DNA from: an uncultured Gammaproteobacteria bacterium
Lineage (GTDB): Bacteria > Pseudomonadota > Gammaproteobacteria > JAADHQ01
Assembly: GCA_963807455.1 (NCBI GenBank)
Contig: CAWECS010000010.1
Coordinates: 31,524-95,523 of the forward strand
Reading direction: 5' to 3'
Length of the DNA: 64,000 nt
In this document: in pieces, positions 1,856-40,397 of the stretch
Layout: the number at the start of each line of letters is the position of its first letter
Position numbering within the stretch: the stretch's first letter is position 1
Position numbers and translations under genes: made by a program
The notes under the pieces: generated by a model
What the model was told of the DNA's origin: nothing
Seen by the model: the letters and a program-made list of their open reading frames with translations, nothing else
Database searches by the model: none

Positions 1856-3040
1856 TTGATCATTAATAATAACAAATCTCCGGCGGCCTTTCTCAGCCTG
1901 GGCTTCAGACCATTTTTTCTTGGTGCCGGGCTGTTCGCGTTTAGCGCCATTGCTCTGTGGATGGCTAGCTATACATTTAACTACAAACTCGGGATTAATC
2001 ATTTAACACTCTTGCAATGGCATGCCCATGAAATGATTTACGGCTATGGTATGGCTGTGATTGCCGGCTTTTTGCTGACGGCTGTCACTAACTGGACAGG
2101 CATTAAGACGCTAACAGGCTACTCACTGCTGATGCTGTTTGCATTATGGGTGCTGGCAAGGCTGTTACCATTTATGCAGATCGAAAACGGACTGGCATTA
2201 ATGTTCACCCTTGACTGCCTGTTTGGTGCGTACCTGGTCATTGCGTTAAGCATCCCTGTGATCAAAGCACGGCAATGGAAACAAATCGGTATAATTTCAA
2301 AAATTTTACTGCTGTTGATTGCCAATGTCGTGTTCTATCTGGGCGCCATGGGTTACCTCGAACAAGGCATACATTGGGGCACTTACGCAGGCATCTACCT
2401 CATTCTTGCACTGGTCTTGATGATGGCCAGACGTGTTCTCCCTTTCTTTATCGAGAAAAGCTGTGGCCTGACAACACCACTCATTAATCGGCCCTGGCTG
2501 GATAATGGCAGCCTGATCATATTCCTGTTTTTTATGCTTAGTGACATCATTGATCCATACACTTGGCTGACTTCATTATTGGCAACTGCACTCGCATTAC
2601 TGCATAGCTTGCGCCTGTATCACTGGCATGTTAAAGGTATCTGGAACAGGCCTTTGCTTTGGATTTTATATACCGCTTATTGTTTTATTACACTCGGTTT
2701 TGTCTTAAAGGCTGCTGTATTTTTGTTTGATATATCAGGCTTTCTGGCCTTACATGCATTTGCATTAGGTGGGATTAGTATTATGAGCATCGGCATGATG
2801 GCACGAGTCTCACTGGGACATACAGGCAGACCTGTAGATAAACCGCCATCAGCTTTAGCATGGATATTTACTTTCATAGTTGCAGCAGCATGCATGCGGG
2901 TCATTATGCCAATGATAGATTTTCAGCACTATTCACTATGGATTTTTATATCGCAGTTATTATGGCTATGTGCCTTCAGTGGATTTGTCGCGGTTTATTT
3001 TTCTGTGCTTACGCAGAAAAATGTTATCAGCAATCAGTAA
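1856..3040 (+). CDS. nnrS: NnrS-family haem-copper membrane protein (NO-response)
   Basis: 394 aa polytopic membrane protein. Carries the NnrS-type N-terminal motif LGFRPFFLGAGLF and conserved His in TM helices. Confidence 0.7.
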   Translation: MIINNNKSPAAFLSLGFRPFFLGAGLFAFSAIALWMASYTFNYKLGINHLTLLQWHAHEMIYGYGMAVIAGFLLTAVTNWTGIKTLTGYSLLMLFALWVLARLLPFMQIENGLALMFTLDCLFGAYLVIALSIPVIKARQWKQIGIISKILLLLIANVVFYLGAMGYLEQGIHWGTYAGIYLILALVLMMARRVLPFFIEKSCGLTTPLINRPWLDNGSLIIFLFFMLSDIIDPYTWLTSLLATALALLHSLRLYHWHVKGIWNRPLLWILYTAYCFITLGFVLKAAVFLFDISGFLALHAFALGGISIMSIGMMARVSLGHTGRPVDKPPSALAWIFTFIVAAACMRVIMPMIDFQHYSLWIFISQLLWLCAFSGFVAVYFSVLTQKNVISNQ

Positions 3041-3669
3041 GTTCTGTATTGAGACTTGCTATCAAAAAACTCATCGTTCAGATACTCAGCGACAGCCAGC
3101 ATGGTAGCGGCCGATGTACCCAGCTGGATATTCCTCATACTTTTTACATTGCTAACGATGGTTTCATCAATCAACAAGTCCGGCTTGGCAGTCCAGGCTT
3201 GATAGGCTTGTCGTTGCTGAGTACTACCAACAGCAATACATTCCGGATAGGCTGCCGGATAAAGACTTTCTTTTTGTCCGCGATCGGCATTTCCAACAGC
3301 GGCATATATTTTACAATGGGTATTGGCAAGAATTTCAAGTGCAGCCTTGACACTTGAGTTCGGTTTCATAAGACCTAATGGCAACACAACAACGTCAGCA
3401 TAGAGCTCCGCAGCCCAAACCAGCCCTCGTGCAAACGCCTGCGGTGAGCCAGCATTGGTGTCAGCAATCACTTTGCCCATGCTAACCTTAACTGTGCCTT
3501 TAAGGTTCTTCGACAAAATTTTCAACATAGATGAACCATGCGAAGCCGAATCTTCCAGGAACGGTTCATTGCAAAAAGTTTGCATGTAGCCACGCTCAAG
3601 ATTGAGATTATCCTGTTCTGACCAGTTTGCGCCGGTATCCAGCATAACTACATGGGGTACTTTAGCCAT
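3034..3669 (-). CDS. Minimal subtilisin-like (S8) serine peptidase with no signal peptide or pro-domain
   Basis: Asp/His/Ser triad motifs appear in subtilisin order (VVMLDTG, SASHGSS, GTSAATMLAVAEY). Likely start at the internal ATG at 3669, preceded by GGGAGAAAG. The 3' end overlaps the nnrS 3' end convergently by 7 nt. Confidence 0.55.
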   Translation of the reverse strand: MAKVPHVVMLDTGANWSEQDNLNLERGYMQTFCNEPFLEDSASHGSSMLKILSKNLKGTVKVSMGKVIADTNAGSPQAFARGLVWAAELYADVVVLPLGLMKPNSSVKAALEILANTHCKIYAAVGNADRGQKESLYPAAYPECIAVGSTQQRQAYQAWTAKPDLLIDETIVSNVKSMRNIQLGTSAATMLAVAEYLNDEFFDSKSQYRTY

Positions 3670-4153
3670 TCTTACTTTCTCCCTGAGAATATGATTTGGC
3701 ATTAACATAGATAATGGCTATTACACATTTCTAAACCGATATCTCCTTGTTTGTATCATTATATTGTCATGAACTTACAAATGACTTATTTAAATATATA
3801 TTAGCATAATCTAATATTTACTTCACTGGCAAACAAAATAGGGTTCGAACACCCTTACTGTGGATTCAAACCAACCCGTGTTCAAGTGAATAAAACACAT
3901 CGAAAACGTTAATATTCACCACTAAACACCAAAAGCACTATTCTACTTTTATTGTATGGTTTTTGGCAATAAATTGCCTGTGTTATCACCTAATCATCCA
4001 TTAATTAGCAAAAGAACAGGACGAAAATCAATAATTGGGCTATTATTCCCAATAATAGTGATGGCAGTCACAGAATTCAATAGCCACATTCTAAATAATT
4101 AAGCCCATAGCGTGATTCGGCCGCTACCACTATAAGCCCAATTAAATTTTATT

Positions 4154-5047
4154 ATGTCCACAACAAACACTGACACTTTACAAAACAATTTCGGAAAAAT
4201 TAATCCGAGAAGTATTAGCACTAAAAAAACGCTAGGTACGCGCGTATTCTTTGGTTTGATGTTTTTTGCCATTATTTACGGCTGGCTCAAACATGATGAT
4301 TTTTATTTATCCGCTGAAAGCGGCTTTGGATACTATCTGGGTATAGCCGGTGGTATCAGCATGCTGGTGCTACTGCTCTACCCCATCAGAAAGAAAGTCA
4401 GCGCCCTGAGAAATTTTGGACCTATCAGGTATTGGTTCAAAGCGCACATGGCTCTCGGCATTATCGGCCCAACACTGATTCTTTACCATGCTAATTATAG
4501 TCTTGGTTCCATCAATAGCAATGTCGCTCTCCTGTGTATGATTGTTGTCTCATTGAGTGGATTAGTAGGTCGTTTCATCTATACCCGTATTCATTATGGT
4601 TTGTATGGAGAAAAAATGACCCTGGCAGATTTGAAAGCAGACCTGGAAAAATCCCGATTAGACATAAACAAGCAATTTCTTTCATTCCCGGATATACAGG
4701 AGCAACTCAATCAGCTCGAAGCCATGGTGGCAAGAAGACGTAATTTTCTGGCACAAATAATAGTTATACCTGTGATCGCAATACGGATTTATTTTCGTCG
4801 TAAAAAAATCAAACGAACTTTGAAACAAGACCTGAAAAATAACAAAACCAGGCTAAACGATATAAATATGGATTTGTTAAAAGCATCCCTGCAAACCATC
4901 TATAACTATATTGAAACGATCCGACGTCTCGGACAACTGATGACCTATGAAAGACTATTTTCACTTTGGCATATTTTGCACCTGCCATTATTTATTATGC
5001 TGGTGATAACCGGGATCATTCATGTATTTGCTGTACATATGTATTAA
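4154..5047 (+). CDS. Integral membrane protein with 4–5 TM helices and paired His in the helices; possible b-type cytochrome or quinol-interacting anchor of the cytochrome cluster.
   Basis: 297 aa. Helices carry KAHMALGIIGPTLILYH and WHILHLPLFIMLVITGIIHVFAVH. A ~110-aa charged coiled-coil region lies between TM3/4 and the last TM. First gene after a 445-bp AT-rich spacer and directly upstream of the multiheme cytochromes. Confidence 0.4.
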   Translation: MSTTNTDTLQNNFGKINPRSISTKKTLGTRVFFGLMFFAIIYGWLKHDDFYLSAESGFGYYLGIAGGISMLVLLLYPIRKKVSALRNFGPIRYWFKAHMALGIIGPTLILYHANYSLGSINSNVALLCMIVVSLSGLVGRFIYTRIHYGLYGEKMTLADLKADLEKSRLDINKQFLSFPDIQEQLNQLEAMVARRRNFLAQIIVIPVIAIRIYFRRKKIKRTLKQDLKNNKTRLNDINMDLLKASLQTIYNYIETIRRLGQLMTYERLFSLWHILHLPLFIMLVITGIIHVFAVHMY

Positions 5048-5086
5048 AGAAGATCTTAAATCGTTGCAATAGAATGTTTAAGATCA

Positions 5087-6644
5087 ATGGATTCGGTTAT
5101 GAAAACGATTTTCGTGATAATGATGCTACTTGTAGCACCCTGTTTGTTTGCAGGCGCATTGGAAACACTGATGATGCCCGGGAAGCTGATTCAGCAACAT
5201 GAAAAATATGAGATTAAATGCGAAAACTGTCATGAAGTTTTCAGCAAAAAGAAACAGACGCGATTATGCAGGCAATGTCATGAGGAAGTTGATAAGGACA
5301 TAAAAGCAGAAAAAGGATTTCATGGAAGAATACCTAACATAAACAAAATTGAGTGCAATGCATGCCATACGGACCACAAAGGTAGAAATATCGATATTGT
5401 GAAACTGGACAAACAAACATTTGATCACGACAAGACTGATTTTAACCTAAAAGGAAAACATCAGTTTATCGCCTGTGATAGCTGTCATCAGCAGAAAAAG
5501 TACAGAGACACAAGCTCTCAATGCTACTCCTGCCATAAACAAAGTGACATTCATCACGGACGACTTGGAAAAAAATGCCAACAATGTCATTCCTCGGAAA
5601 GTTGGCTAGCAGCAGAATTCGATCACGAAAAGACAGACTTCAAGCTTAGAGGAAAACATAAAAAAACCAATTGTAACAATTGCCATATAAATCAGGAATA
5701 CAAAAAAACCCCTACACAATGCCATCAGTGCCATATAACCAAAGATATACATAACGGCATTTTTGGAAAAAAATGCGGCGATTGTCATAACACCAAACAA
5801 TGGGACGATTGCTGTATTTAATCATGACAAACAGACCGACTATAAACTGTCAGGCAAGCATCGTGACATTCAATGTGAATCCTGCCACCGTAATAATCCA
5901 TACCTGCATAAAACACCCAGCCAATGTAGCAAATGTCACAAAGACGAAGATGTGCATCAGGGTGTATACGGGCAGCAATGCCACTCGTGTCATTCAAGCA
6001 AAAACTGGCAGTCAATACATTTCGATCATAACCGTGATACTGACTTCAAGCTGAATAATAAGCATAATCTTACGCGTTGTGACAGTTGCCATAGGAGCAA
6101 CCCCTATAAAAACAAAACCGTGAGAAGCTGTTACTCTTGCCATAAACCAGATGACAAGCACCAGGGATCACAAGGAAAACAATGTGAGAATTGTCATAAT
6201 GATAAAAGCTGGTCGGACAAGGTAGCGTTTGATCACGATATTTCCAACTTCCCGCTGATTGGCTTACATGCCTCGGTTGCCTGTGAAGGTTGCCATATAG
6301 ACACTCACTACCGTAAAACCCCAAAGAATTGCAATGACTGCCATCAACAGGATGATGTCCACAAAGGTATGTTCAGTGAGAAATGTAATGATTGCCATAA
6401 CCCCAATGCCTGGAGTCGCTGGCAATTCGATCACAATACACAAACTGATTATCATTTAGAAGAATCGCATGAGAATCTGGAATGTCATGCCTGTCATTTA
6501 GTTGACCAGAAAATGACTAAACCGGATCAATTTTGTAATAGCTGCCATGCTAATGATGATGAGCATAATGGAAGTTTTGGTATCCAGTGCGACCGCTGCC
6601 ATACACAAGAGTCTTTCAGCATCATAAAAATGTCAGGCCATTAA
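5087..6644 (+). CDS. Periplasmic multiheme cytochrome c, about 21 CXXCH, of the paired/doubled-CXXCH (cytochrome c3/c7-like) module type. Split in this sequence by a +1 frameshift near 5809.
   Basis: Track ORFs 5087–5821 and 5763–6644 overlap in different frames. Both halves carry the same repeated unit W-x2-A-x-F-D/N-H-x2-T-D-F/Y-x-L-x-G-K-H-x5-C-x2-CH. Removing one T from gaTTgct restores ...KQWDDAVFNHDKQTDYKLSGKH... across the junction. N-terminal signal peptide present. Confidence 0.8.
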
Positions 6645-6656
6645 CATCAGCACTAA

Positions 6657-8247
6657 ATGGAGAAAACGATGAATATAAAATGGAAAAGAATAATACTCGT
6701 TAGCCTGTTGTTACTACCGGGAATAGCTTCATCTGCTGATACTTCAAAGCCTTTTGATCATTTTAATACCGGTTACCCGCTCGAAGGTGCTCATATGCAA
6801 GTAGAGTGTGAAACTTGCCATGTCAGAGGCATTTTTAAAGGAACACCAACACAATGTTCAGGTTGCCACAGTGCGGGCAGCACCATCAGTGCCAGCAAAA
6901 AGCCCTCTCATCATATTCAAAGTAATGAGAATTGTGGCGATTGTCATACCGACAAGAATTGGTCATCCGCACGAATGGATCATTCTTCTGTCACGGGTTC
7001 CTGTTTGACTTGTCATAATGGTACTACCGCTACGGGCAAGCATGCGCTGCATGTTCAAAGTAATAATACCTGCGAGGACTGCCACACCAGTAGCGCCTGG
7101 ATTCCCGCGCGCTTCGACCATAGTTCGGTCACAGCCACTTGTTCGACTTGCCACAATGGCACCACCGCCACCGGTAAACATGCCACGCATATCCAGAGCA
7201 ACAACACCTGTGATGATTGCCATACCAGCAGCGCCTGGATTCCCGCGCGCTTTGATCATACCAACATTACCGCCGCCTGCTTCTACCTGTCACAATGGCA
7301 CGACTGCCACCGGTAAACATGCCACGCATATCCAAAGCAACAACACTTGTGATGATTGCCATACCAGTAGCGCCTGGATACCTGCCCGCTTTGATCATAT
7401 TAATATTACAGCAGCCTGCTCTACCTGCCACAATGGCACGACGGCCACGGGTAAAAATCCGACACATATCCAGGCCAACAATACCTGTGATGACTGCCAC
7501 ACGACCAATGCCTGGATCCCGGCACGTTTTGACCACACCAACATTACCGCCGCCTGTTCTACCTGTCACAATGGCACCACGGCCACGGGTAAAAATCCAA
7601 CACATATCCAGTCAAACAATGTTTGCGATGATTGTCATACCACCAACGCCTGGATTCCAGCGAGATTCGATCACAATGCAGTCACGGCTGCGTGCTCTAC
7701 CTGCCATAATGGCACCACGGCCACGGGTAAAAATGCGACACACATCCAGACCAATAACACTTGCGATGATTGCCATACCACTACCGCCTGGATTCCGGCG
7801 AGATTCGATCACAATGCAGTCACGGCACCATGCTCTTCATGCCACAACGGTCAACAAGCTACGGGCAAGTCAAGTAGTCATTTCATCACCAGTCGACAGT
7901 GCGATAACTGCCATCGTAATACTAACTGGACGCCCAGTATTTTTACTCACGCAACAATGAATTATCCTGGCGACCATGGCGTTTCTCTAAATTGCATCGA
8001 TTGTCATACCGGCAATAACGAAACAGTTAACTGGAAAAATGCCGCTTACAAACCTGACTGTGCTGCATGCCATAGTGGTGATTTTAAATCTGGCCCGCAT
8101 AAAAAATATGAGAACCCGGATACCACTTATACTGTCAGTGAATTACGAGACTGCACAAGTAGCTGCCATATCTATACCAACAGCACTTTAACAACAATTA
8201 AAGAAAACAGGAATAGAGAACACTCTGTTACAAATAGAGAATTCTAG
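6657..8247 (+). CDS. Periplasmic multiheme cytochrome c, about 19–20 CXXCH, built from seven tandem 46-aa dihaem modules. Split in this sequence by a +1 frameshift near 7281.
   Basis: Track ORFs 6657–7316 and 7018–8247 lie in different frames. Repeat unit: ARFDHxxxTAxCSTCHNGTTATGKxxTHIQSNNTCDDCHTxxAWIP. The third repeat reads tgcTtctacc where all other copies read tgctctacc; the extra T breaks the frame. Signal peptide present. A CX3CH-like motif (CTSSCH) lies near the C-terminus. Confidence 0.8.
6960..7860 (+). repeat. Seven tandem ~138-bp repeats, about 85–95% nucleotide identity, inside the cytochrome gene
   Basis: Near-identical blocks recur at ~7050, 7188, 7320, 7460, 7598 and 7740 (for example catgccacgcatatccagagcaacaacacctgtgatgattgccatacc...). 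This also produces several long antisense and out-of-frame artefact ORFs in the track. Confidence 0.8.
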
Positions 8248-8253
8248 ATAACA

Positions 8254-8694
8254 GTGTTAGCACAAATTAAAAAAATGGATACGACGAGTTTAGCAATGTA
8301 CAAAGGATTTATTCTGGCTTTAGTCCTATGTAATGCTCCAGACTTGCATGCAGAGCCCCTGATAGACCATGTGAATAATGAGGTACAGAATAACCAGGAA
8401 ATTGTAGAAATTATTTTCAATACCCCGGTACAGTACCTTTACCACACACCAAAATCTGGCACGAAAACCATGTTGCTTGGTTTTTATATTCACCCATCAT
8501 GGAAGCAGAGCAGATCCTGGCACAGGCCGATATCATTCAAGCGCACCAAATACTTGCAAAGCATGGATATATATTCTGAACAGGGATTCAACCCGCATCT
8601 ATATCTTGAGTTTAATACCTTTGTGAATATTCAAGTACAACCGAGGAAGAACCTTCGTGGTTTTGTTTTAACACTAAGTGAACAAGAAAAATAA
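8254..8694 (+). CDS. Small lipoprotein-like protein, paralogous to the N-terminal domain of the downstream beta-barrel protein
   Basis: 146 aa. ...CNAPDLHAEPLIDHVNNEVQNNQEIVEIIFNTPVQYLYH... aligns with ...CIAITQPIIDHVDFNESAESIDIVLTFTLPVSYLSH... of the 819-aa protein. Confidence 0.5.
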   Translation: MLAQIKKMDTTSLAMYKGFILALVLCNAPDLHAEPLIDHVNNEVQNNQEIVEIIFNTPVQYLYHTPKSGTKTMLLGFYIHPSWKQSRSWHRPISFKRTKYLQSMDIYSEQGFNPHLYLEFNTFVNIQVQPRKNLRGFVLTLSEQEK

Positions 8695-11137
8695 TAAAAT
8701 GATCTCTACCAGGAAGCATTTAATAACTGTTTTGGCGTTCTTTTTAATGCTCTCTGCAAACAATACCTGCATAGCCATCACTCAGCCCATTATTGATCAT
8801 GTGGATTTTAATGAAAGCGCTGAAAGCATTGATATCGTCCTGACTTTTACCCTGCCCGTAAGTTATTTAAGTCATTTTCCTGCCTCTTCAGGAAAACAAC
8901 TGGATATTATGACTTTACCGATTGCTAATAGCGATGATCAAAAGCAAGCTGTAAATACGCCTCAACGACTGGCATTCACTGCCAATGCTTCAAATCCATT
9001 ACAACTGATACGCTATGAACCTAATAACCCTGCCGGTAAAGTACTCTCTTTGCTTTTCAATTCCACGACAAAATTCTCGGTACCGGCTCAACAGGAACCC
9101 AACGTAATCACGATCAGGTTATTAAAAAAAATAAAACTAAAGACATCTGAACCGGACAAACAGACGCCTGTCACTTTGGAAGACAGTGACAACTTTAAAT
9201 ACCTTATCAATTTAGTGTCGTCTCAAGATACCATCAAGCCATTTACGCACACAGATTACCCCTACCTGAAGCCATACCTGATTTATACAACCCGCTTTTC
9301 TATTGATTCAGTTCAATGGAACCGTATCAGACTTGGTTTCTTCCGAACCAAGAATGAAGCACAAACACAACTCAAACATGTTTTAAAGGACTTCCCTCGT
9401 GCCTGGGTTGACAGGGCAAAAGACGAGGAAAGAGAACACATCCAACCCTGGCTATTTGCTCTGGCAAGAAATAATAATCAGATAGCCCTGGCACAGACCG
9501 TACAGGTAAAACCCGAGAGACCAACACTCATTACAACGAAAAGCCAGCAATTATTCGCTGATGCTAAAAAAAATATAATCAATGGCGATTATCGCAAGGC
9601 AATTTTGATTCTTACCAAGTTATTAAATCTGCCTGAGAATGAATCAACTGAAGCAGCACAGGAATTGATAGGTGTTGCGCGAGAGAAAAATCGGCAAATT
9701 GCACATGCAATTGCCGAATACAAAAACTATCTTAAAAGATATCCCAAAGGGGAATTCCAGCACCGTGTAAAACAACGCCTGGATGGCCTTACCAATGCAC
9801 GTAGAACATCCAGAAAAAAATTACGCAAAGCTAAAAAACGTACTGGCGAAACGCCCTGGCAAGTCTATGGCACTGTATTTCAATTCTATCGACGGGATGT
9901 AGACACGACAGAATCCAATGATGCCGTCCTTAACTCCTCATTGGATACCGATCTGTCCCTCTCAGCCAGAAAACGTACTAAATCGCTGGACATCAGAACA
10001 CAACTTACCGGTAGCTATCAATATAACCTTGAAGAGAGCAATGAAAATGAATTCCGTGTCAGCTCACTTTATGTTGATGCTGCTGATCGCAAACGCAACT
10101 GGAATGCACGCATGGGTCGACAATCCCAGAACACGGGTGGTGTATTGGGAAGATTCGATGGAATCACACTGGGTTACCGCTTAAGCCCGAAATGGAAACT
10201 CAATGCCGTCACCGGCTTTCCTGTTGTTATCTCTTCCTCGAACCAGTTTCAAACGGACAAGGTTTTTTACGGTATGAGTCTGGATGCGGGCACATTTAAT
10301 AAATACTGGAACGCGAGCACTTTTATTATCAAGCAAACGGCAAATGATCTGGATGACCGAACAGCCGTGGGCGCAGAACTACGTTACCTGCATCCTAAAA
10401 CCACTGTATTCGGATTACTAGATTATGATATTGATTACAATTCTCTAAATATAGCCCAGCTTATTGCCAATGCCAGATTGCCTTTCGACACATCTATTAA
10501 TCTCGTCGCCGACTATCGAAATGGCCCCATTTTAACTACCAGCAATGCATTACAAGGTCAAACCAGCACAACACTGGAAGAGCTTCTATTAACTTATACA
10601 GAAGACGAAATTAAACAACTGGCCAAAGACAGAACCACTGTATTTCGCTCGGTTAGTGGCACGCTCAGCAAACCATTAACAGAAACGCTGCTACTCAGTC
10701 TGGACCTGGCAGCCTCACATCTTGAATCAAGCCCGGCTTCAGGTGGAATCGAGGCAACACCGAGTACCGGGATAGAATATTTTTACGGCGCCCAGCTTAT
10801 CGCCAATAGCATCTTCAAGAAAGGAGATACCTCACTGTTTGGAATCAGGTATGCTGATACTTCATCTTCTGACACAGTAACATTATCCATTAACAGTCGT
10901 TACCCCTATAAAAAAGACTGGCGCTTCAACCCCCGTATACGTGTTGACAGTCAAACACGCAATGATGATTCAACCATTCTTAAATTTCGGCCTTCATTCA
11001 GAGTTGACTATCGCGCCATGCGCAAAGTTAAAGTTGAGCTCGAACTCGGTTATGAGTATTCCAACATAGACGACACCTTTGGCACCCGAACGGAATCTAA
11101 TTATTTTATTAACATGGGCTATATCGCTGATTTCTGA
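8678..11137 (+). CDS. Outer-membrane beta-barrel protein with an N-terminal AMIN-like domain, a SPOR-like domain and TPR repeats
   Basis: 819 aa with signal peptide. Possible start at 8699. SPOR-like segment YLIYTTRFSIDSVQWNRIRLGFFRTKNEAQTQLKHVLKDFPRAWV. TPR-like region around residues 290–370. The C-terminal ~450 aa have alternating beta-strand character and end in the outer-membrane-type terminal motif ...GYIADF. Confidence 0.6.
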   Translation: MNKKNNKMISTRKHLITVLAFFLMLSANNTCIAITQPIIDHVDFNESAESIDIVLTFTLPVSYLSHFPASSGKQLDIMTLPIANSDDQKQAVNTPQRLAFTANASNPLQLIRYEPNNPAGKVLSLLFNSTTKFSVPAQQEPNVITIRLLKKIKLKTSEPDKQTPVTLEDSDNFKYLINLVSSQDTIKPFTHTDYPYLKPYLIYTTRFSIDSVQWNRIRLGFFRTKNEAQTQLKHVLKDFPRAWVDRAKDEEREHIQPWLFALARNNNQIALAQTVQVKPERPTLITTKSQQLFADAKKNIINGDYRKAILILTKLLNLPENESTEAAQELIGVAREKNRQIAHAIAEYKNYLKRYPKGEFQHRVKQRLDGLTNARRTSRKKLRKAKKRTGETPWQVYGTVFQFYRRDVDTTESNDAVLNSSLDTDLSLSARKRTKSLDIRTQLTGSYQYNLEESNENEFRVSSLYVDAADRKRNWNARMGRQSQNTGGVLGRFDGITLGYRLSPKWKLNAVTGFPVVISSSNQFQTDKVFYGMSLDAGTFNKYWNASTFIIKQTANDLDDRTAVGAELRYLHPKTTVFGLLDYDIDYNSLNIAQLIANARLPFDTSINLVADYRNGPILTTSNALQGQTSTTLEELLLTYTEDEIKQLAKDRTTVFRSVSGTLSKPLTETLLLSLDLAASHLESSPASGGIEATPSTGIEYFYGAQLIANSIFKKGDTSLFGIRYADTSSSDTVTLSINSRYPYKKDWRFNPRIRVDSQTRNDDSTILKFRPSFRVDYRAMRKVKVELELGYEYSNIDDTFGTRTESNYFINMGYIADF

Positions 11138-25101: not shown

Positions 25102-26898
25102 TTAGCGCCATTCTTCAATAATAAGTTTTATTATGGCATCATTGCCTTTTTCAGCAGCATACATTAAAGCGGTATAGCCGTGTTTGTTGGTATTATTTAC
25201 ATCCACTTTCTTTTGCAAAAACAGTTTCACCAGCTCAAGCCGCCCGGATTTTGAGGCAATCATTAATCCGTTATTTCCACTACTGGTGGTTTGATGTGCA
25301 TCCGCGCCTGCTTTCAGTAATAAATTAATACTGGCCTTGTCTCCACGGGCAGTCAATTCAGTCAGCAAAGTGGCGCCGTCCAGATTGCGTTGATTAATAT
25401 CTGTTTTGTTTTTCAGTAATACTCTGGCCGCTTCACGATGACCGGCAAGCAGTGCATACCATAATGCATTCTGTTGTTGCTTGTCTTGTAGCAGTGAGTC
25501 GGCGCCACAAGCTAACAATGCCGTGACAACACGGGTATGCCCCTGATCGGCTGACAACATTAATGCTGTCAAACCATCTTTTCTGCGCGAATTTATGCTG
25601 CCTGGAGTTTTCCTGCATAATGTAGAAACGACTTGTTTATGACCATGACGTGATGACAACATTAATGCTGTTTGCCCAACCTGGTCTTTTTGTGCTGGAT
25701 TCGCACCATGTGAGAGCAGGTGCGCTACTACACTGGCATGGCCAGCACGTGCTGACAACATTAGCGCGGTCAACTGTTGCTTGGATGCCTGATTAACATT
25801 AGCGCCTTTATTAATGAGTTTATTTACCATACTCATGCGCCCCTTCCATGCTGCGCGCATTAAAGCTGTGTAACCTTCCTTGTCTACTGCATTCAGGTTT
25901 TGCTGTAGATTGATCTGCTCGTTAAAAATTGCTTGTTCGCCTGTCCATGCGGCCAGCATTAATAGCGTCCAGCCTTTATACGGGCCGTTAGTGATTAAAG
26001 CCTGCTGTTGCTTTATCCGTTGCTGTTGACTGACCCGTGGCTTTTGACTCTTTTTATTATCTACATAGGTTTGCAGTAAATCCGCTACTTTTTTATGTTT
26101 GTACTCAACGGCCAGTTGATGGGCCGTTAGATTATCTGCATTTTTGAAGCGCACATTTGCTCCGGCACTCACTAACAGGCTAACTATTGGGTAATCACCC
26201 TGTCTGGCTGCAAGCATTAACGCCGTCATACTGTCATTATTACGCGCATTCAGGTTTGCTTTATAACTAATCAGTAATTTAACCATGCGCTGATGACCTT
26301 GTATCACCGCGATTTGCAGCAAACTGTTACCTTTTTTATCGGCGGCATTACTATTTTCACCCTGTCGCAACATTGATCTGGCGCGTTCAACATCACCCTT
26401 TTTTACGACTTGTGGTAATAAACGATTGTTGCTGCCGGTTGACAGGCTGCCCTGGGTAATTTGCTTTTGCAGTTTTAGTAATGCCTGTTTTGCATGGCGG
26501 TTATTTTGAGCGGCAGATTTTTGATACCAGGCACTGGCTGCTTGCAGATCCTGTTTTACACCAAGACCTTGTTGGTACATTTGACCCAGTTGGTATTGGG
26601 ATTTCGCATGACCCTGCTGGGCCGCGCGCCGATACCAATCTGCAGCCTTATCATGACTACGACTCACGCCAGTTCCATTGCGATAAAATGTTGCCAGTTT
26701 GTACTGCGCGTCAACATTATTATTTTTTGCCAATGGCTGGCAAAGTCTGAACGCCTCTTTAAAATCTTTCAGTCTGATGGCCTGATTGACTGCCTCCAGA
26801 TCATTGGCAAGCAACAAACTGGAGGTGCACAGTAACAACAAACCTGCTATCCACTGAATCATTCTATTACTCGGTTCCATACTTGGTTTCAACTTCAA
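25102..26898 (-). CDS. Secreted Sel1-repeat plus ankyrin-repeat protein
   Basis: Signal peptide. Four or more Sel1/TPR-like repeats (AQYKLATFYRNGTGV..., SQYQLGQMYQQGLGV...). About 10 ankyrin repeats follow (GNSLLQIAVIQGHQRMVKLLISYKANLNARN..., repeating TALMLAAxxGH...LLxxGAxVN). Confidence 0.8.
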   Translation of the reverse strand: MKLKPSMEPSNRMIQWIAGLLLLCTSSLLLANDLEAVNQAIRLKDFKEAFRLCQPLAKNNNVDAQYKLATFYRNGTGVSRSHDKAADWYRRAAQQGHAKSQYQLGQMYQQGLGVKQDLQAASAWYQKSAAQNNRHAKQALLKLQKQITQGSLSTGSNNRLLPQVVKKGDVERARSMLRQGENSNAADKKGNSLLQIAVIQGHQRMVKLLISYKANLNARNNDSMTALMLAARQGDYPIVSLLVSAGANVRFKNADNLTAHQLAVEYKHKKVADLLQTYVDNKKSQKPRVSQQQRIKQQQALITNGPYKGWTLLMLAAWTGEQAIFNEQINLQQNLNAVDKEGYTALMRAAWKGRMSMVNKLINKGANVNQASKQQLTALMLSARAGHASVVAHLLSHGANPAQKDQVGQTALMLSSRHGHKQVVSTLCRKTPGSINSRRKDGLTALMLSADQGHTRVVTALLACGADSLLQDKQQQNALWYALLAGHREAARVLLKNKTDINQRNLDGATLLTELTARGDKASINLLLKAGADAHQTTSSGNNGLMIASKSGRLELVKLFLQKKVDVNNTNKHGYTALMYAAEKGNDAIIKLIIEEWR

Positions 26899-28166
26899 TT
26901 CCGACTTCTTTCAACATGGGAGTAGGTAAGATACCGCCTGCACTGACAATAATGGCATCATTATCAATTTCGATGCGATCACCTTGCTGCTCGATTTCGA
27001 CTGAATTTTTATGTATTTGCTGAACATTGGATTTAAACATCACCCTTAGTCGACCCGCTTTTTCAGCTTGCTCTACTTTTTGTCTGTTTTTTTCCTTGGC
27101 ACGCGCAAAGGCTTCACTACGATAAGACAAGGTCACCGTAGTTCCCTGCTGTTCAGCAATACTGGTGGCAGCCTCCAGTGCGCTGTCACCACCACCCACG
27201 ACCAATACATGCTGGCCTTTGTATTGCTCAGGATCGATCAAGCGATACACCACCTTGGGTAGTTCCTCCCCCGGTACACCGAGTTTCCTAGGGCTGCCAC
27301 GTCTGCCAATCGCGAGCAATACCTTTGCAGTTGTGTAACTCGCTTTGTTTGTTTTGATTTCAAAACCTTGATCTGTGGGTGTTATCGATCAGCATGTTTT
27401 CCTGGTAGTTAATTTTAATGCCGGTTTTTTTCTCGACCTCCTGCCACATTTCCAGCAGGGCCTCTTTGGTCGTTTCCCTTACTTTGACTTTACCTATAAT
27501 GGGCAACTGCATGGGTTGGGTCATGACAATTTTTCCGCGTGGAAAATTAAATACGGTACCCCCCAGACTTTCCTGTTCGAGTGTCAGGTATCTGAGCCCT
27601 TTTTGCTTTGCTCCCAGAGTAGCCGAGAATCCTGCGGGTCCGGCACCAATGATGATGACATCATAATCACCCGATCCATTTTTGTTATTGGCAATAGCTT
27701 CCAGGGCCTGGCGTCCCTGTTCGACTGCATTTCGAATCAAACCCATGCCACCCAGTTCGCCGGCGATATAGATACCCGGCACATTGGTTTGAAAATCCGG
27801 ATTTACCTGCGGAATATCCACCCCGCGTTTTTCTGTCCCGAACACCAGTGTAATCGCATCGACTGGACAAGCTGTTTTACACGCACCATGACCAATGCAA
27901 TGCGATGGGTTGATCAGGTGAGATTTCCCTTGAATCAGTCCGAGCACATCTCCTTCGGGGCAGGCTGTAATGCAGGATGCACAACCAATACATTTGTGCA
28001 CTTCAATGACCGGGTGCAAAGATGCCGGCTCTGCAAGCCCTTCTGCTTCTGCTTGTTTTAATTTGGACAGGTTGCCTGACTGCTTACGCGTCTGATAAAT
28101 CGCATACAAGGCGATAAAAATCACCGGTAGTGAATAAAATACCCATTGAATCTGATCGGCATCCAT
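26867..28166 (-). CDS. Membrane-anchored FAD/NAD(P)-dependent oxidoreductase with an N-terminal 2x[4Fe-4S] ferredoxin domain, split by an apparent 1-nt frameshift near 27390
   Basis: Track ORFs 27360–28166 (TM helix, two Cx2Cx2Cx3CP motifs, FAD fold DYDVIIIGAGPAGFSA...) and 26867–27319 (NAD fold VLVVGGGDSALEAA...) are in different frames. The downstream frame, read upstream of its annotated start, encodes the protein-like stretch SITPTDQGFEIKTNKASYTTAKVLLAIGRRG; removing one nucleotide near 27390 joins it to the upstream ORF (...KINYQENML-SITPT...), so the two pieces form one gene. Confidence 0.6.
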
Positions 28167-35474: not shown

Positions 35475-36548
35475 CTAGAATTTTACATTCAAATTCGCCT
35501 GAATCCTGTATCGATCCCGATCATTGAATCTGGCATCACTTGTGCTTGCACCTAATGTTGCTGTATCCACTATTCTTTCCATGTCATAGTACCTCAAATC
35601 CAGAGCAACTCTTTTCGCTAACTGGTAATCCAGCTGCAAGCGAAAACCATCAAAGTTGGAAACACCCGTACTACCCGGGTTTGGAAAATCGTCCTGTGAA
35701 AAGGTACCATCACCCAAAGGCGCGTGCGCTTCAACATCGAAGTAATACAGTCGCAATCCCACTTTATTATTTACTTTATAACGACCTTCCAGCACATACG
35801 CTGTATCATTAGTATTGGCATCACTCTTCAAGTATTCCAAACCAAAACGCCATGGCCCTGTCCTTAGCTCACCGTTAAGCATCCAGTGGTCTTCTGCCTG
35901 AAATGTACCCGTTGGTGCATCAAGCATGGCGCCACCCAGAGCCGCCTTGAATTTCATGCCTTCTATTACGCCTGCATAAACGGCTTGATATAGGAAAACA
36001 TCCGTATCATCACCCCAGGATCCTTCATTCACCATGGCATAGGCACCATTGAGTGTCAGCGGGCCATTATTATAAACGACGGTAAAAGCATCCGGATTAA
36101 TATCTTTATCCCAGAACATTTCGCTGGATTGCCAGTAATTTAATGGCGTCTTACCTGCATGCAGTGTCAGGCTTGAATAGGGTTTATAGGCAACATAAGC
36201 CTGATCAAAACCAATGTCAGCATTTTTGGAACCATCATTTGTGCCAAAAGTAATATGCGGTGAATTTAGCGCACTGGTGCCGGTGGCCAAACGCAATACG
36301 CCTGACCATTGATCATCCACTTTGTAACTGAGGCCCAGGCGTGCCCGATAACGAAAGCGATCTCGGTCCTGGCCAACACCTGCCGAAGTGGTGCGATCAT
36401 CATATTCGGCACGCAAACGAAAATCGCCATACAGTTTTACATTGCCGTCCTTATCCAGATCGATCGCGGCTTGTGCTAGTCCTGTCGATGCCGTCATTGA
36501 CGCAATCAGGGCAACATTTATTACCGACTTGTTGTTCATGATTTTCAT
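35475..36548 (-). CDS. Outer-membrane beta-barrel porin
   Basis: Signal peptide. Alternating-polarity beta strands throughout. Terminal motif ...ANLNVKF. 357 aa. Confidence 0.6.
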   Translation of the reverse strand: MKIMNNKSVINVALIASMTASTGLAQAAIDLDKDGNVKLYGDFRLRAEYDDRTTSAGVGQDRDRFRYRARLGLSYKVDDQWSGVLRLATGTSALNSPHITFGTNDGSKNADIGFDQAYVAYKPYSSLTLHAGKTPLNYWQSSEMFWDKDINPDAFTVVYNNGPLTLNGAYAMVNEGSWGDDTDVFLYQAVYAGVIEGMKFKAALGGAMLDAPTGTFQAEDHWMLNGELRTGPWRFGLEYLKSDANTNDTAYVLEGRYKVNNKVGLRLYYFDVEAHAPLGDGTFSQDDFPNPGSTGVSNFDGFRLQLDYQLAKRVALDLRYYDMERIVDTATLGASTSDARFNDRDRYRIQANLNVKF

Positions 36549-36579
36549 AGCAAAGCCCTTCCTCTCTATTTAATAATAG

Positions 36580-37161
36580 TTATTTAAAACGTAACGCAGA
36601 CATGCTGTCATTTATTATTTCCTTTACCTTGGCATAGTCGTTATATAAAAACACAATATAGGCATCGGCATGATTGTCCTTGTGCAATGTCAGCATCAAG
36701 GCCTGACGATAGTGTGCTGAATAGCTGTCACTCACATCAAGCACCGCGGCAGCGGCCCAGCCAGCATTGAAGCGTTGCTGTGATTGCTCAGTCGGGTATT
36801 CCTTTCTGGGACTGTGACCACCATCCGATAATTGCGTGACGATCGTCTCAAACATCATATTAAACAAATGGTTTGGTTCGGGCGCATTATTATGCGGGTC
36901 TTCATAGTCGACCTTGATGCGCTTGATCGGCCTTATACTGTACCTGATCTCCATCAAATCACTAACATGACGCAGTGCATATTCATACGGCAGTACATCA
37001 TCCCTGGCGGGTGGTATTTCCTTAAACCCCGGTATCTCCGTCATTCTAAGTCCCGACTCCTGCAGTAAAGCAGCAAAGTCCAGCGTGTTTTTCGCCGCGC
37101 ATAACTGAACTGAAGAAACCAGAAAAACAAATCCGAAAAATAATTTGAATGAACTTGCCAT
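36580..37161 (-). CDS. Secreted hypothetical protein
   Basis: Start at internal ATG 37161 (MASSFKLFFGFVFLVSSVQLCAA signal peptide). The upstream extension in the track overlaps the preceding gene. Confidence 0.5.
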   Translation of the reverse strand: MASSFKLFFGFVFLVSSVQLCAAKNTLDFAALLQESGLRMTEIPGFKEIPPARDDVLPYEYALRHVSDLMEIRYSIRPIKRIKVDYEDPHNNAPEPNHLFNMMFETIVTQLSDGGHSPRKEYPTEQSQQRFNAGWAAAAVLDVSDSYSAHYRQALMLTLHKDNHADAYIVFLYNDYAKVKEIINDSMSALRFK

Positions 37162-37177
37162 CAACTCAACCAGGTAT

Positions 37178-37963
37178 TCATGATTTATCGGTCGCCTTGC
37201 CCGCCTTCCCTTGCCATTCATCCAGCAGTTTTTGTGCCGTCTGTTTCCAGGACTCGCTCTCACTCAAATCGATAAATCGTTGCAGATCGGCGATAGCCAA
37301 CGGTTTTTTATCCATCGCATCATACACTGCAGCGCGATTGAAGTAGGGTGCCGCAACGTCAGGTTGAACTTCAATACAGGCATTGAAGTCGGCCAATGCA
37401 GACTTGTATTCGCCACTGCTGAAACGGATTGCGCCACGATTGAAATGTGCCGCCACCAGGCCAGGCTCCAGTTTCAGTGCCTGCTCAAGGTCCTTCAATG
37501 CCTCTTCTATACTGCCAAAGCTGCGATAGGCCTGGGCACGATTAACATGCAACAAGGCATTATGCGGCTCAATAGCAATGGCTGCCTCCAGATCTTGCAA
37601 TGCCATGCTGGCCTTGCCTGACTCCAACAGGAGACTGGCACGCACAGAAAGCAACTCTGCATTATTGGAATATTGCTTGATCGCCTGATCGAGAACAGCA
37701 AAGGCCTCTTGCGGCCTGCCCTCCTGGTGATGTTGCAACGCAACCAGGATGTGCTTGTCCGGCATAAGCGCGGCATGTGGATCATAGGGGCCATGTGCGC
37801 CAGAGCGTTTTTTGACAGAGGTATCAGCACCCGCCATTGCCTTGCTGACATCCATGCTTGTCGATGATGCTGTCGCGGCAGCTTTATCACCCCGGTCGCA
37901 CGCCCCTATCCCGATCATAGACACTAGTAAGAACAGCAGTGTCCAGTATGTTAATCTTTGCAT
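37178..37963 (-). CDS. TPR-repeat lipoprotein
   Basis: Lipobox LVSMIGIGAC. Five or more TPR units (...AELLSVRASLLLESGKASMALQDLEAAIAIEPHNALLHVNRAQAY...). Confidence 0.7.
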   Translation of the reverse strand: MQRLTYWTLLFLLVSMIGIGACDRGDKAAATASSTSMDVSKAMAGADTSVKKRSGAHGPYDPHAALMPDKHILVALQHHQEGRPQEAFAVLDQAIKQYSNNAELLSVRASLLLESGKASMALQDLEAAIAIEPHNALLHVNRAQAYRSFGSIEEALKDLEQALKLEPGLVAAHFNRGAIRFSSGEYKSALADFNACIEVQPDVAAPYFNRAAVYDAMDKKPLAIADLQRFIDLSESESWKQTAQKLLDEWQGKAGKATDKS

Positions 37964-37991
37964 ACCATTCCTTTCTTCTGCTTTTCAGTGT

Positions 37992-40397
37992 CTATTTCTT
38001 TGACTTACTTCCAGCATAAGTCTTGAACATCTTGTTCATCAACTCAATGTGCTGATCATCGGTCAGTGTTCCAGGCTGGGCCACCTTACCCCAAAGCTGC
38101 TCATTGGTCATTTCACGGTGACAACCCATACACAGACCGGTGCGCTTCATACCATCGCGCATTTCCTTGGTCAGGGACCTGGACAATGGCCAATGGGTAC
38201 CCACCGTTGCTACCTGCTCGCCCTTCTCGTTGACAATCGTGGACAAGTCGAAATCCAACCCGTCTATCTTAGGTATCTGGATCTGATAACGTCCCGGAAT
38301 TGGCTTTCCGGTCTTCTGGTCAATCAGGTCCTCGATCACATTTTCTGTGCTACGGGCCATAAATACGCCTCCAGAGATACCGTAACCCATGGCCTTCGGG
38401 TTGTTATGACAACTCTCACAGGTACGCGCCTTGCGCTGTGCTGAATGTGGCTGCACCGGTGCCATATCGATTCCCAACGGTATACGCTTCTGACCTAATT
38501 GCTTCGCCTCGTCGGTAGACCGGCCTGTCTGGTTCAACGCAATGGTCTTGCCCTTACGGTCAATCACAGTATAGATCACCTGGCAACCCGGCATCAGCGG
38601 AGTGACACGACCTTCACCATTGATGCCCAGAACCGGCTCTTCCCAACGCAAATAGGAACGGGTTTCAAACGCTTTACCTGGGCTCTTGATACCGCCTGTT
38701 CCCAGGATGGATTCAGCCGTTTCACCATCCGATGTACGCTTGTTACCGGAAGCGACCCAGTCAATATCCTGATATGGTTTGCCTTTACTGTCATTGCTGT
38801 AGTCCATTTTCACGTGACAGCCATAGCACTGCGGTACCCAGGAAGCATGACAGGCATAACATTCAAGACTCTCCGAATGTTTTTCTACCCGGTCCATAGC
38901 CACCATAGCATTCGGGCTCTTCCAGTTGTCATCCAGAGCCAACTGCTTGAGTATCGGCACTTCAAAATCATTACCTGTGGCTGAATGCAGTAAGACTTTT
39001 TTGCCATCCTTAACGACATTGCCAAAAGGATTACCGCGCGCAGTAACAAGATATCCATCTTTCTTGTCATAATGCGTTGCATAGGCTGAGGTTTCTGGCA
39101 ATGCAGCATCGGTGAGGCCACGCGGCTTGCTCGATAGCTTCTTGCCGAACTCCTCGCCATAACCCAATGGCAATTCCCACGGGAATTTACGTGGGGTGCC
39201 ATGGCAGTCTTCACATTCAATCTCTACCTGTGCCAACGTGGTGCCGAAGATGTTGCCGTCGCCATGCATATCAATGGTGGTATGACAGTCCTGGCACAAC
39301 AAGCCCCCTTTGGGATTACCTTTGCGGCTCTTGATCTGGTGATGCAGGTCATCGGAGATAAACAGGTATTTCTTGGTATGCAGTTTGGGCTGCTTCTTGC
39401 CCTGCTCATTGAATGGGCTGCCATAGGGGAATTCCATTAGACCCTGATAGGTCACACCAATACGCTTACCGCGATTATGGCAAGAGTTACAGGATTCTAC
39501 CGGAATACCAGAATAGGTTGTTGTGGGCGTTTTAACCTTGGCTTCGCGTGTAGCCTGGATGCTGTGTACCAGCATATGGCCCTGCTTGGTTTTATCGATA
39601 GTCGGATCGCCACCTTCGTAGTAGGCATCGTTACTGTAAGGTATATGGCAGGAGGAACAACCCATACCACGAAAGTCACCACGCTTCTCGCGTCCGCGCA
39701 CACCAACATGGCAGCGTTGACACTGCTGGCGCTGATAGGTCATGCCAGCAAGCTTGGGATCTTTTTCGATTTCCTCGACTGTGGGTTGTGGCACCATTTT
39801 CAGTTCTTTCGGGAACTGCTTGGGATGCGCCTTGGTCATAGCCACCATGTAATCTTTATATTCTTGCGTGCCGATATTCGGGATAGGGCCATCGGTATCT
39901 TTTACATCATAGTTACCCCACGGCACATTGTGATCAAACACTTCCTTGATGCCCCAGGTATGCAGGTTACCCTGAATCTTGCCAGCTTCTGTATTCATCA
40001 GGGATTTTTCCAGACGCTCTGAATAACTCTGGTGACAGCCGGCTTGACTGCATGTGAACTTGTTAATCCATATACTTCCTGGATCACGATAAAATTCCTG
40101 CGGACCCTTGGCTGCTTTCAGGCTCTCGGGACTGCCTGCATGCGCATCATTCTTGGTGGTTGCCTTGGGATTGCCGCCATGACACACAACACAACCATTC
40201 GCATCACCATGACCACTACCCACGCCCTTGATCTGCAACATCATCGCACTGGTATTTTCGCGAATCGGCTCCAGGCCTTCATGGCAAGCCAGACAGCCCT
40301 TCTCGTCAGCGAGCTTTTTCGAAACGGTGTCCATTTTAGCAATGGCGGTGGAAGATACAGTCAACATTAACAGCGCAAGAAGAGTGGTTATTTTCAT
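37992..40397 (-). CDS. Periplasmic multiheme cytochrome c, about 11–12 haem sites, of unassigned family
   Basis: 801 aa with signal peptide. Motifs CLACH, CVVCH, CSQAGCH (CX4CH-like), CQRCH, CSSCH, CNSCH, CQDCH, CEDCH, CYACH, CYGCH, CESCH, CMGCH. Confidence 0.8.
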   Translation of the reverse strand: MKITTLLALLMLTVSSTAIAKMDTVSKKLADEKGCLACHEGLEPIRENTSAMMLQIKGVGSGHGDANGCVVCHGGNPKATTKNDAHAGSPESLKAAKGPQEFYRDPGSIWINKFTCSQAGCHQSYSERLEKSLMNTEAGKIQGNLHTWGIKEVFDHNVPWGNYDVKDTDGPIPNIGTQEYKDYMVAMTKAHPKQFPKELKMVPQPTVEEIEKDPKLAGMTYQRQQCQRCHVGVRGREKRGDFRGMGCSSCHIPYSNDAYYEGGDPTIDKTKQGHMLVHSIQATREAKVKTPTTTYSGIPVESCNSCHNRGKRIGVTYQGLMEFPYGSPFNEQGKKQPKLHTKKYLFISDDLHHQIKSRKGNPKGGLLCQDCHTTIDMHGDGNIFGTTLAQVEIECEDCHGTPRKFPWELPLGYGEEFGKKLSSKPRGLTDAALPETSAYATHYDKKDGYLVTARGNPFGNVVKDGKKVLLHSATGNDFEVPILKQLALDDNWKSPNAMVAMDRVEKHSESLECYACHASWVPQCYGCHVKMDYSNDSKGKPYQDIDWVASGNKRTSDGETAESILGTGGIKSPGKAFETRSYLRWEEPVLGINGEGRVTPLMPGCQVIYTVIDRKGKTIALNQTGRSTDEAKQLGQKRIPLGIDMAPVQPHSAQRKARTCESCHNNPKAMGYGISGGVFMARSTENVIEDLIDQKTGKPIPGRYQIQIPKIDGLDFDLSTIVNEKGEQVATVGTHWPLSRSLTKEMRDGMKRTGLCMGCHREMTNEQLWGKVAQPGTLTDDQHIELMNKMFKTYAGSKSKK

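Follow-up and report, generated by a model that had tools for sequence, protein, structure and literature searches.

Clusters of the porin-cytochrome c complex 3 (PCC3) type, which encode a predicted route of extracellular electron transfer, were defined by comparative genomics (He et al. 2017, Front Microbiol 8:1584, PMC5566968). Their core consists of genes for an inner-membrane protein (IMP) of ~300 aa, a periplasmic multihaem cytochrome (MHC), a second MHC designated 'extracellular' and a porin-like outer-membrane protein (PMC5566968). The IMP was described as having five transmembrane (TM) helices, with SGXXG on TM4 and WX3HX13H on TM3 and TM5; the periplasmic MHC as having a median of 21 haems (21-27) arranged in sequence repeats; and the extracellular MHC as rich in T, S, A and G, with haem-bearing repeats and a low ratio of amino acids to haems (PMC5566968). 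In the Riftia symbiont the periplasmic MHC has 21 haems in 7 repeats of ~66 aa. Examples of PCC3 are found in Sideroxydans lithotrophicus ES-1 (Slit_0867-0870 and Slit_1446-1449), Leptothrix cholodnii SP-6 and the endosymbionts of Riftia, Tevnia and Ridgeia; the carrier groups of He et al. include Aquabacterium and tubeworm endosymbionts (PMC5566968), and PCC3 was later taken up in Gallionellaceae pangenomics and Sideroxydans transcriptomics. Here this description is compared with a cluster of five genes at positions 4154-11137 of a 64,000-nucleotide stretch of DNA (contig CAWECS010000010.1, positions 31,524 to 95,523 of the forward strand, assembly GCA_963807455.1) from an uncultured Gammaproteobacteria bacterium. 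The whole of this stretch is referred to below as the window, and all coordinates are window coordinates.

The locus matches PCC3 in gene set, gene order, motifs, haem counts and repeat structure; it is a PCC3-type porin-cytochrome cluster and probably encodes an envelope-spanning electron conduit. Shared with PCC3 are the four core genes, the motifs and size of the IMP, a 21-haem MHC built of ~66-67-aa repeats, a second MHC that is T/S/A/G-rich and repeat-built (~26 aa per haem), a large outer-membrane barrel and the predicted function. Likeness to the ES-1 and SP-6 reference clusters was judged via the published description of PCC3. A sequence-only reading of the window, made before these comparisons, had called the system uncharacterised and undescribed; that claim fails for the system as a whole, since He et al. 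2017 (PMC5566968) had already described this architecture under the name PCC3. The same reading was right about the layout: the five genes are co-directional on the + strand, with spacings of 39, 12, 6 and -17 bp (a 17-bp overlap), and lie behind a 445-bp AT-rich intergenic gap that falls within the lowest-GC stretch (GC 0.36) of the first 16 kb of the window. The features of the cluster are as follows.

3709-4153, no strand: divergent intergenic region, GC 0.36 (alignment with the upstream region of the close relative L081)
4154-5047, + strand: PCC3 inner-membrane protein (IMP), 297 aa (motifs and structure model)
5087-6644, + strand: MHC1, the 'periplasmic' 21-haem cytochrome (open reading frames 5087-5821 and 5763-6644; Pfam Cytochrome_C7 / c3)
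6657-8247, + strand: MHC2, the 'extracellular' cytochrome of PCC3 (open reading frames 6657-7316 and 7018-8247)
7068-7811, + strand: 138-bp tandem repeat, 5.4 copies, coding for the two-haem repeats of MHC2 (Tandem Repeats Finder)
8254-8694, + strand: secreted protein of only 146 aa, encoded on its own and paralogous to the N-terminal beta-sandwich domain (NTD) of the barrel protein (BLASTP)
8678-11137, + strand: PCC3 outer-membrane protein, 819 aa (structure model; SPOR profile matches in homologues)

The IMP carries paired His within its helices. In an AlphaFold2 (AF2) model with a predicted local distance difference test score (pLDDT) of 72, five TM helices were seen (residues 27-45, 58-74, 91-110, 117-147 and ~268-296), with the motifs on helices 3, 4 and 5 and a helical insert of ~110 aa between TM4 and TM5. 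W94-x3-H98-x13-H112, S135-G-x-x-G139 and H147, and likewise W272-H273-x2-H276-x13-H290 and H295, were invariant in 35 homologues down to ~40% identity, which bears out the earlier description of a polytopic membrane protein with paired His. The protein has no CXXCH and matched no Pfam or NCBIfam family. A b-haem protein was proposed for this position by He et al. by analogy with ferric-reductase and cytochrome-b domains (PMC5566968), and on its motifs the window protein is likewise proposed to be a dihaem cytochrome b.

MHC1, once repaired by the deletion of one base (see below), has 518 aa, 21 CXXCH sites and 51 His, and consists of a signal peptide followed by seven c7-like three-haem units, the haem sites forming 7 triplets ~67 aa apart. 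Pfam recognised these as Cytochrome_C7 / c3 units. Besides the 21 proximal His there are 30 others, enough for bis-His ligation of every haem. On TIGR03508, the DmsE/MtrA family model, the protein scored 16.6 bits, and it gave no significant sequence match to any solved PDB chain. Homologues of MHC1 were taken from the best 120 of 5183 matches; the counterpart in an Aquabacterium sp. is 40% identical.

MHC2 after repair has 529 aa with 19 CXXCH sites and one CX3CH site (CTSSCH), or ~26 aa per haem, and its T+S+A+G content is 38%, versus 19% in MHC1. It begins with a signal peptide and an N-terminal part that is conserved; two-haem repeats of 46 aa follow, and a module of ~140 aa, likewise conserved, forms the C-terminus. 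At the DNA level the repeats form 5.4 copies of a 138-bp unit with 81% matches and no indels. The C-terminal module was conserved in 17 aligned loci from several phyla, and the count of internal two-haem repeats varied. The last haem site is of the CX3CH type (RDCxGSCH; 8165-8182, residues ~499-504) and is kept in most of the 17 aligned C-termini (loci L008-L072). This constant module is an obvious candidate for a barrel-docking element. Haem number in MHC2 ranged from ~10 to 73 across related loci, and giant second cytochromes were seen in Sedimenticolaceae (73 CXXCH in 1828 aa, L019), in locus L016 (57 in 1754 aa) and in Aquabacterium (2166 aa, L083).

The sequence-only reading had seen no resemblance to the Mtr families in any of the parts. 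This stands for the missing NapC/CymA and for the barrel, which is not of the MtrB type, and must be amended for MHC2, which is weakly MtrA/DmsE-like: it matched TIGR03508 at E 1e-29 (103.8 bits, below the cut-off of 192.2) and chain A of the solved Mtr complex (6r2q_A) at E 2.7e-5, with residues 272-451 aligning weakly to both. A sub-threshold match to TIGR04257 ('nanowire_3heme') was also found in MHC2.

Both cytochrome genes are split in this sequence, MHC1 into 5087-5821 and 5763-6644 and MHC2 into 6657-7316 and 7018-8247, and the split is present in the public record, where a 293-aa fragment is deposited as a protein (P0305). The earlier count of about 40 CXXCH sites in two large cytochromes holds after repair (21, and 19 plus the CX3CH); neither is a single open reading frame here, and in taking them as uninterrupted the earlier reading passed through two one-base frameshifts. 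Deletion of one base near 5802-5807 restores MHC1, and deletion of an extra T near 7281 restores MHC2. Alignment to L081, a relative in which the IMP is 79% identical to that of the window and in which the NnrS and hypothetical genes upstream are likewise shared, gave a single gap column at each frameshift site. The L081 orthologue of MHC1 is an intact 518-aa gene (82% nucleotide identity, its one gap column at the frameshift), and MHC2 is an intact single open reading frame in L081.

The conduit is functional in this organism only if both frameshifts are assembly errors, and on the sequence assembly error is considered more likely than recent pseudogenisation. In the latter case the frameshifts would be real, no full-length cytochrome would be made and the locus would be decaying. 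Such an inactivated PCC3 is possible but doubtful: it draws on two independent one-base frameshifts in adjacent MHC genes, both in the deposited record, and on the finding of only one other split gene in the remaining ~60 kb; by our own estimate, three disruptions in 64 kb would give ~0.15 expected in 3.1 kb. Against it, each MHC gene is otherwise fully open with no further gaps relative to the intact L081 orthologue; the IMP, the small protein and the barrel protein are all intact; and one of the two sites lies inside the 138-bp tandem repeat of raised GC, a setting in which assembly or polishing errors are presumably common. The other split gene, on the - strand (26867-27319 and 27360-28166), encodes an oxidoreductase with Fer4 and pyridine-nucleotide-disulphide oxidoreductase domains, and the Pfam Pyr_redox_3 match is divided between the two open reading frames (positions 1-93 in one and 130-282 in the other); as the third such gene in the window it points to a background of such defects in the assembly. 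A third explanation, in which recoding is programmed at the two frameshifts as a means of regulating cytochrome synthesis, could be drawn from their occurrence in two adjacent genes of one operon. It was rejected as extremely improbable, since no slippery heptamer could be read at either site, the ~80%-identical relative L081 has each of the two genes in a single frame, and a single 21-haem open reading frame was present in most of the 80 related loci described below.

The barrel protein was modelled by AF2 at pLDDT 86. From the N-terminus the model shows a signal peptide, then a beta-sandwich at residues 39-149 and a mixed alpha/beta unit at 175-264; five to six TPR-like helices (287-373) come next, followed by a 22-strand barrel (395-818) that also has short helices at 621-651. 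The 819-aa outer-membrane beta-barrel of the sequence-only reading is thus upheld, its C-terminal half being the 22-strand part. The domains, all on the + strand, are placed as follows.

~8783-9127: NTD beta-sandwich
~9185-9475: SPOR-like domain
~9533-9802: YbgF/BamD-like TPR
~9851-11134: 22-strand beta-barrel

No barrel family match was obtained in Pfam or NCBIfam. Homologues of the barrel protein number in the hundreds, many of them annotated merely as SPOR or TPR proteins. The designation 'SPOR-like' (residues ~170-266) draws more on the family than on the window protein itself, which scored 19.0 bits on PF05036 against a cut-off of 21; the 64%-identical homologue P0004 scored 26.8 bits, and SPOR was matched in 18 of 29 barrel family members at E <= 0.001 (best 8.9e-16). 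Within 8678-8750, a start at GTG 8678 or ATG 8699 gives a plausible signal peptide; in the public annotation of the barrel (P0001, 796 aa) the start is placed at an internal Met, and the signal peptide is lost.

The small protein (146 aa) encoded directly ahead of the barrel gene proved to be a paralogue of the barrel N-terminus, as had been claimed, matching barrel residues 20-75 in BLASTP at E 9e-7. In a joint alignment (A3) of the barrel NTD (8783-9127) and the small paralogue (8350-8694) a His in a Y-x-x-H-x-P motif was invariant. The earlier label 'lipoprotein-like' has less behind it than was claimed: the N-terminus of the small protein resembles a signal peptide, and its LVLC is not a canonical lipobox. 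Neither the NTD family nor the small protein matched any Pfam or PDB family, and the small protein also had no NCBIfam match; the NTD family profile gave no match against the PDB. An AMIN domain (PF11741), suggested earlier for the barrel N-terminus, was rejected: no match was found even at E <= 1 in the NTD, in the small protein or in 20 further family members, there was no Pfam or PDB sequence support for it, the fold of the domain alone not having been searched, and the sole homologue with a true AMIN domain (P0097) did not align to the NTD region. A single-sequence search with the small protein returned ~8 small close representatives in 1.8 billion proteins, and the wider family was seen only with the NTD profile, which matched a short open reading frame directly upstream of the barrel gene in 29 of 72 loci.

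Conservation of the gene neighbourhood was followed by scanning species-representative genomes with the barrel alignment. This yielded 469 relatives, of which the best 80 loci were analysed, none of them from ES-1 or SP-6. The 469 span Gammaproteobacteria, Alphaproteobacteria, Thermodesulfobacteriota, Nitrospirota, Nitrospinaceae, Myxococcales and Acidobacteriota; the best 80 include gammaproteobacterial metagenome-assembled genomes, Sedimenticolaceae, a Lamellibrachia endosymbiont, Woeseiaceae, Hyphomonas and Hyphococcus, together with members of the last five of the groups just named. Where at least 600 bp of upstream sequence was available, a multi-haem open reading frame lay directly upstream of the barrel gene in 71 of 72 loci. 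Where at least 7 kb was available (40 loci), an IMP and at least two multi-haem open reading frames occurred in the same order in 37. Of the remaining three loci, two have masked runs of N upstream. A 21-haem open reading frame was present in 31 of these 40 and a 24-haem one in four. The PCC3 genes are thus co-inherited across several phyla.

A domain census of the 80 loci showed TPR plus barrel to be the constant core. The sandwich-SPOR-TPR-barrel arrangement occurred without a separate small gene in 35 loci; in 13 others, and in 3 variants with doubled SPOR, it was preceded by a sandwich gene of its own, which is the situation in the window. In ~14 loci the sandwich was present only as a separate gene, beside a SPOR-TPR-barrel (doubled-SPOR forms included) or a TPR-barrel, and 8 loci had a sandwich-TPR-barrel without SPOR.

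In Aquabacterium sp. GCA_044226965.1 (L083) the cluster consists of an IMP (36% identical to that of the window, E 1e-49), an MHC of 684 aa, an MHC of 2166 aa and a TPR-barrel of 769 aa (26% identity over 569 aa, E 3e-49), and the loci of the Lamellibrachia endosymbiont and Sedimenticolaceae (L055, L056 and L060) encode an IMP, a 21-haem MHC, a 47-haem MHC and the barrel protein. The Aquabacterium and tubeworm-symbiont loci come from the same genus or group as the carriers of He et al. and not from the same strains. One Sedimenticolaceae metagenome-assembled genome has two seemingly identical PCC3 loci (L055 and L056, on the 'chromosomes' OY829894 and OY829891), which are either a true duplication or an assembly duplication.

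With its TPR-plus-barrel architecture the 819-aa protein could also be a polysaccharide exporter of the BcsC, PgaA or AlgE kind that merely adjoins cytochrome genes, and AlgE, PgaA, PelB and BcsC are among its structural matches, all of them weak and generic. The barrels of BcsC and PgaA have 16 strands, not the 22 of the model; neither the window cluster nor the annotated relatives L081 and L083 contain a glycosyltransferase gene; and in other loci the cytochrome set lies directly upstream of the barrel gene. The exporter explanation was ruled out because of this multi-haem neighbour in 71 of 72 relatives, and is given next to no weight. The sequence-only reading had named beforehand three findings that would tell against it: an exporter neighbourhood lacking cytochromes, a gene set that is not co-conserved, and IMP His residues that are not conserved. 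What was found instead were the cytochrome neighbours just given, the full set in 37 of 40 loci and the invariant His, none of which refuted it. Its logic of inner-membrane anchor, haem wire and outer-membrane barrel is still the best reading.

If the locus works as such a conduit, the parts may act as follows. Two b-haems would be ligated in the IMP by the HX13H pairs, of which one lies near each membrane face. By the positive-inside rule the N-terminus and the insert at 148-265 are predicted to be cytoplasmic; H98 and H276 would then sit close to the inner face and the other two, H112 and H290, close to the outer one, an arrangement that would stack the two b-haems across the membrane; electrons would be passed to or from the quinone pool or a partner on the cytoplasmic side. 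MHC1 would be a rod-like wire of seven c7-like units spanning the periplasm; PCC3 proteins with 21-27 haems were argued by Hoover et al. to be long enough to cross it. MHC2 may dock in the 22-strand barrel via its conserved, weakly MtrA-like C-terminal module, and the variable run of two-haem repeats would then set its reach outside the cell. The sandwich, SPOR and YbgF-like TPR module of the barrel protein, together with the secreted paralogue, may tether or scaffold the complex on peptidoglycan. The fuller proposal that PCC3 conduits are held on peptidoglycan by the barrel module and the NTD paralogue, possibly at Tol-Pal or division sites, and that this fixes the geometry of the trans-envelope wire, is put forward tentatively, as a speculation with the odds against it.

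Besides the split cytochrome genes, several observations weigh against a conduit. The IMP gave no profile match against the PDB at E <= 10, and Foldseek found no fold match to a solved cytochrome b (b561 appeared only at E 4, TM 0.17), so that the 'cytochrome b' status derives from the motifs. In fold the barrel resembles MtrB no more than it resembles generic porins or ushers, and the model has fewer strands than the MtrB barrel, which has 26. MHC2 has a plain signal peptide with no lipobox that could be read from its sequence, and its extracellular location is consequently an assumption. In the literature PCC3 is described as 'functionally unverified'. In Sideroxydans ES-1 both PCC3 clusters were expressed at lower levels on Fe(II) than on thiosulfate, and on magnetite the PCC3 proteins were low or undetected.

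Some of these observations would suit a module internal to the envelope, in which the cytochromes store or relay electrons within the periplasm, for instance as a buffer for those from periplasmic sulfur oxidation, and the barrel is a peptidoglycan-tethered anchor and not the sheath of a haem wire. The plain signal peptide of MHC2 and the higher expression of PCC3 on thiosulfate in ES-1 agree with this, as do the SPOR and YbgF-like TPR parts, which are typical of envelope-organising proteins, and the 22-strand model, in which the helices at 621-651 could fill the lumen. It is nevertheless unlikely: the barrel gene is strictly linked to MHC2, the terminal module of MHC2 is conserved and the protein has a weak likeness to MtrA, and a haem number of ~10 to 73 is more readily explained for a part whose size is not limited by the constant periplasmic width. 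The trans-envelope conduit is retained as the probable function of the cluster.

Within the intergenic region ahead of the cluster, two non-coding blocks (~3774-3818 and ~4035-4080) are nearly identical in the alignment with L081. Promoter-like hexamer pairs on the + strand (3774-3802 and 3781-3810) fall inside the first block, and the second includes the perfect palindrome TTGGGCTATTATTCCCAA, which may be an operator or form a hairpin in the 5' leader; promoter and terminator scans gave counts equal to those in shuffled sequence, not above chance. Directly upstream of this region lie an NnrS gene (1856-3040) and a degenerate subtilase-like gene (3034-3708; weak Peptidase_S8 match). Both are syntenic with the PCC3 cluster in L081, and a full-length Peptidase_S8 gene lies upstream of the Aquabacterium cluster (L083).

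Elsewhere the window has genes for two molybdopterin oxidoreductases and for ATP sulfurylase, as well as a complete ccm operon, which counts in favour of a conduit. A further group on the - strand (35475-40397) comprises genes for a Porin_4/Porin_5 protein (357 aa), a protein that belongs to no family (227 aa), a TPR protein (261 aa) and a multi-haem cytochrome (801 aa) with matches to Cytochrome_C7 and to MtrC/MtrF domain II/IV; the gene order of this group is unrelated to PCC3. The ccm operon and this second cytochrome/porin module (35.5-40.4 kb) had both been noted in the sequence-only reading and are both present. Such gene content would fit a host with a sulfur metabolism and a heavy investment in c-type cytochromes. 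A 598-aa protein with ankyrin and Sel1 repeats, unusual in a free-living bacterium, is encoded on the - strand (25102-26898), and no Rfam match was found in the window.

PCC3 is among the most widespread of the predicted, functionally unverified routes of extracellular electron transfer, the barrel alone having its 469 relatives in species-representative genomes. The locus adds a PCC3 carrier with sulfur-metabolism genes and opens no new category. It does sharpen the parts list for reconstitution, which would now include a conserved five-gene variant, a predicted peptidoglycan-type tether, a constant MHC2 C-terminal module and the invariant His of the IMP. Were the tethering proposal true, a tethered PCC3 would let a sulfur-metabolising host exchange electrons with solids or neighbouring cells by a route unrelated to Mtr.

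Several known systems resemble the cluster in part. What links the IMP to the ferric-reductase and cytochrome b561-type dihaem domains is no more than the likeness in motifs that He et al. pointed out. With MtrCAB, MtoAB and PioAB (6r2q) the locus has a logic in common, namely a multi-haem gene directly upstream of a barrel gene and an outer cytochrome component. It differs from them in that its cytochromes have ~20 and 21 haems instead of 10, with the DmsE model below cut-off, and in having a polytopic IMP with b-haem-type motifs in place of a CymA/NapC tetrahaem partner; unlike MtrCAB it has no lipoprotein MtrC-type decahaem in the window cluster, and unlike MtrB and PioB its barrel has 22 strands in the model and no barrel family match. 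The c7 polymers of Geobacter (GSU1996, TIGR04257) are, like MHC1, chains of c7-like three-haem units; MHC1 has seven units versus four in GSU1996, and its operon also encodes a membrane protein and a barrel. The barrel protein has SPOR-like and YbgF/BamD-like TPR parts of the kind found in FtsN, DamX and RlpA (SPOR domains) and in YbgF/CpoB and BamD (TPR modules), which here, unlike in those proteins, are fused to the 22-strand barrel of a cytochrome operon, and for which binding to peptidoglycan or Tol-Pal is only predicted.

Relative to PCC3 as described, both MHC genes are frameshifted in this assembly, the window host has ~42% GC and sulfur-metabolism genes, a fifth gene (the NTD paralogue) is present, and the barrel carries an NTD, SPOR and TPR module. 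In the accessible PCC3 literature no mention was found of SPOR, TPR, peptidoglycan or a fifth gene, and a full-text literature search for PCC3 with SPOR, TPR or peptidoglycan returned unrelated papers only. The SPOR/TPR-fused barrel and the small paralogue, which the sequence-only reading had taken to be undescribed, are possibly both new, within a surrounding system that is known. The periplasmic module of the barrel, the fifth gene, which recurs in about one in three loci, and the conserved MHC2 C-terminal module with its CX3CH site appear to be new details of PCC3.

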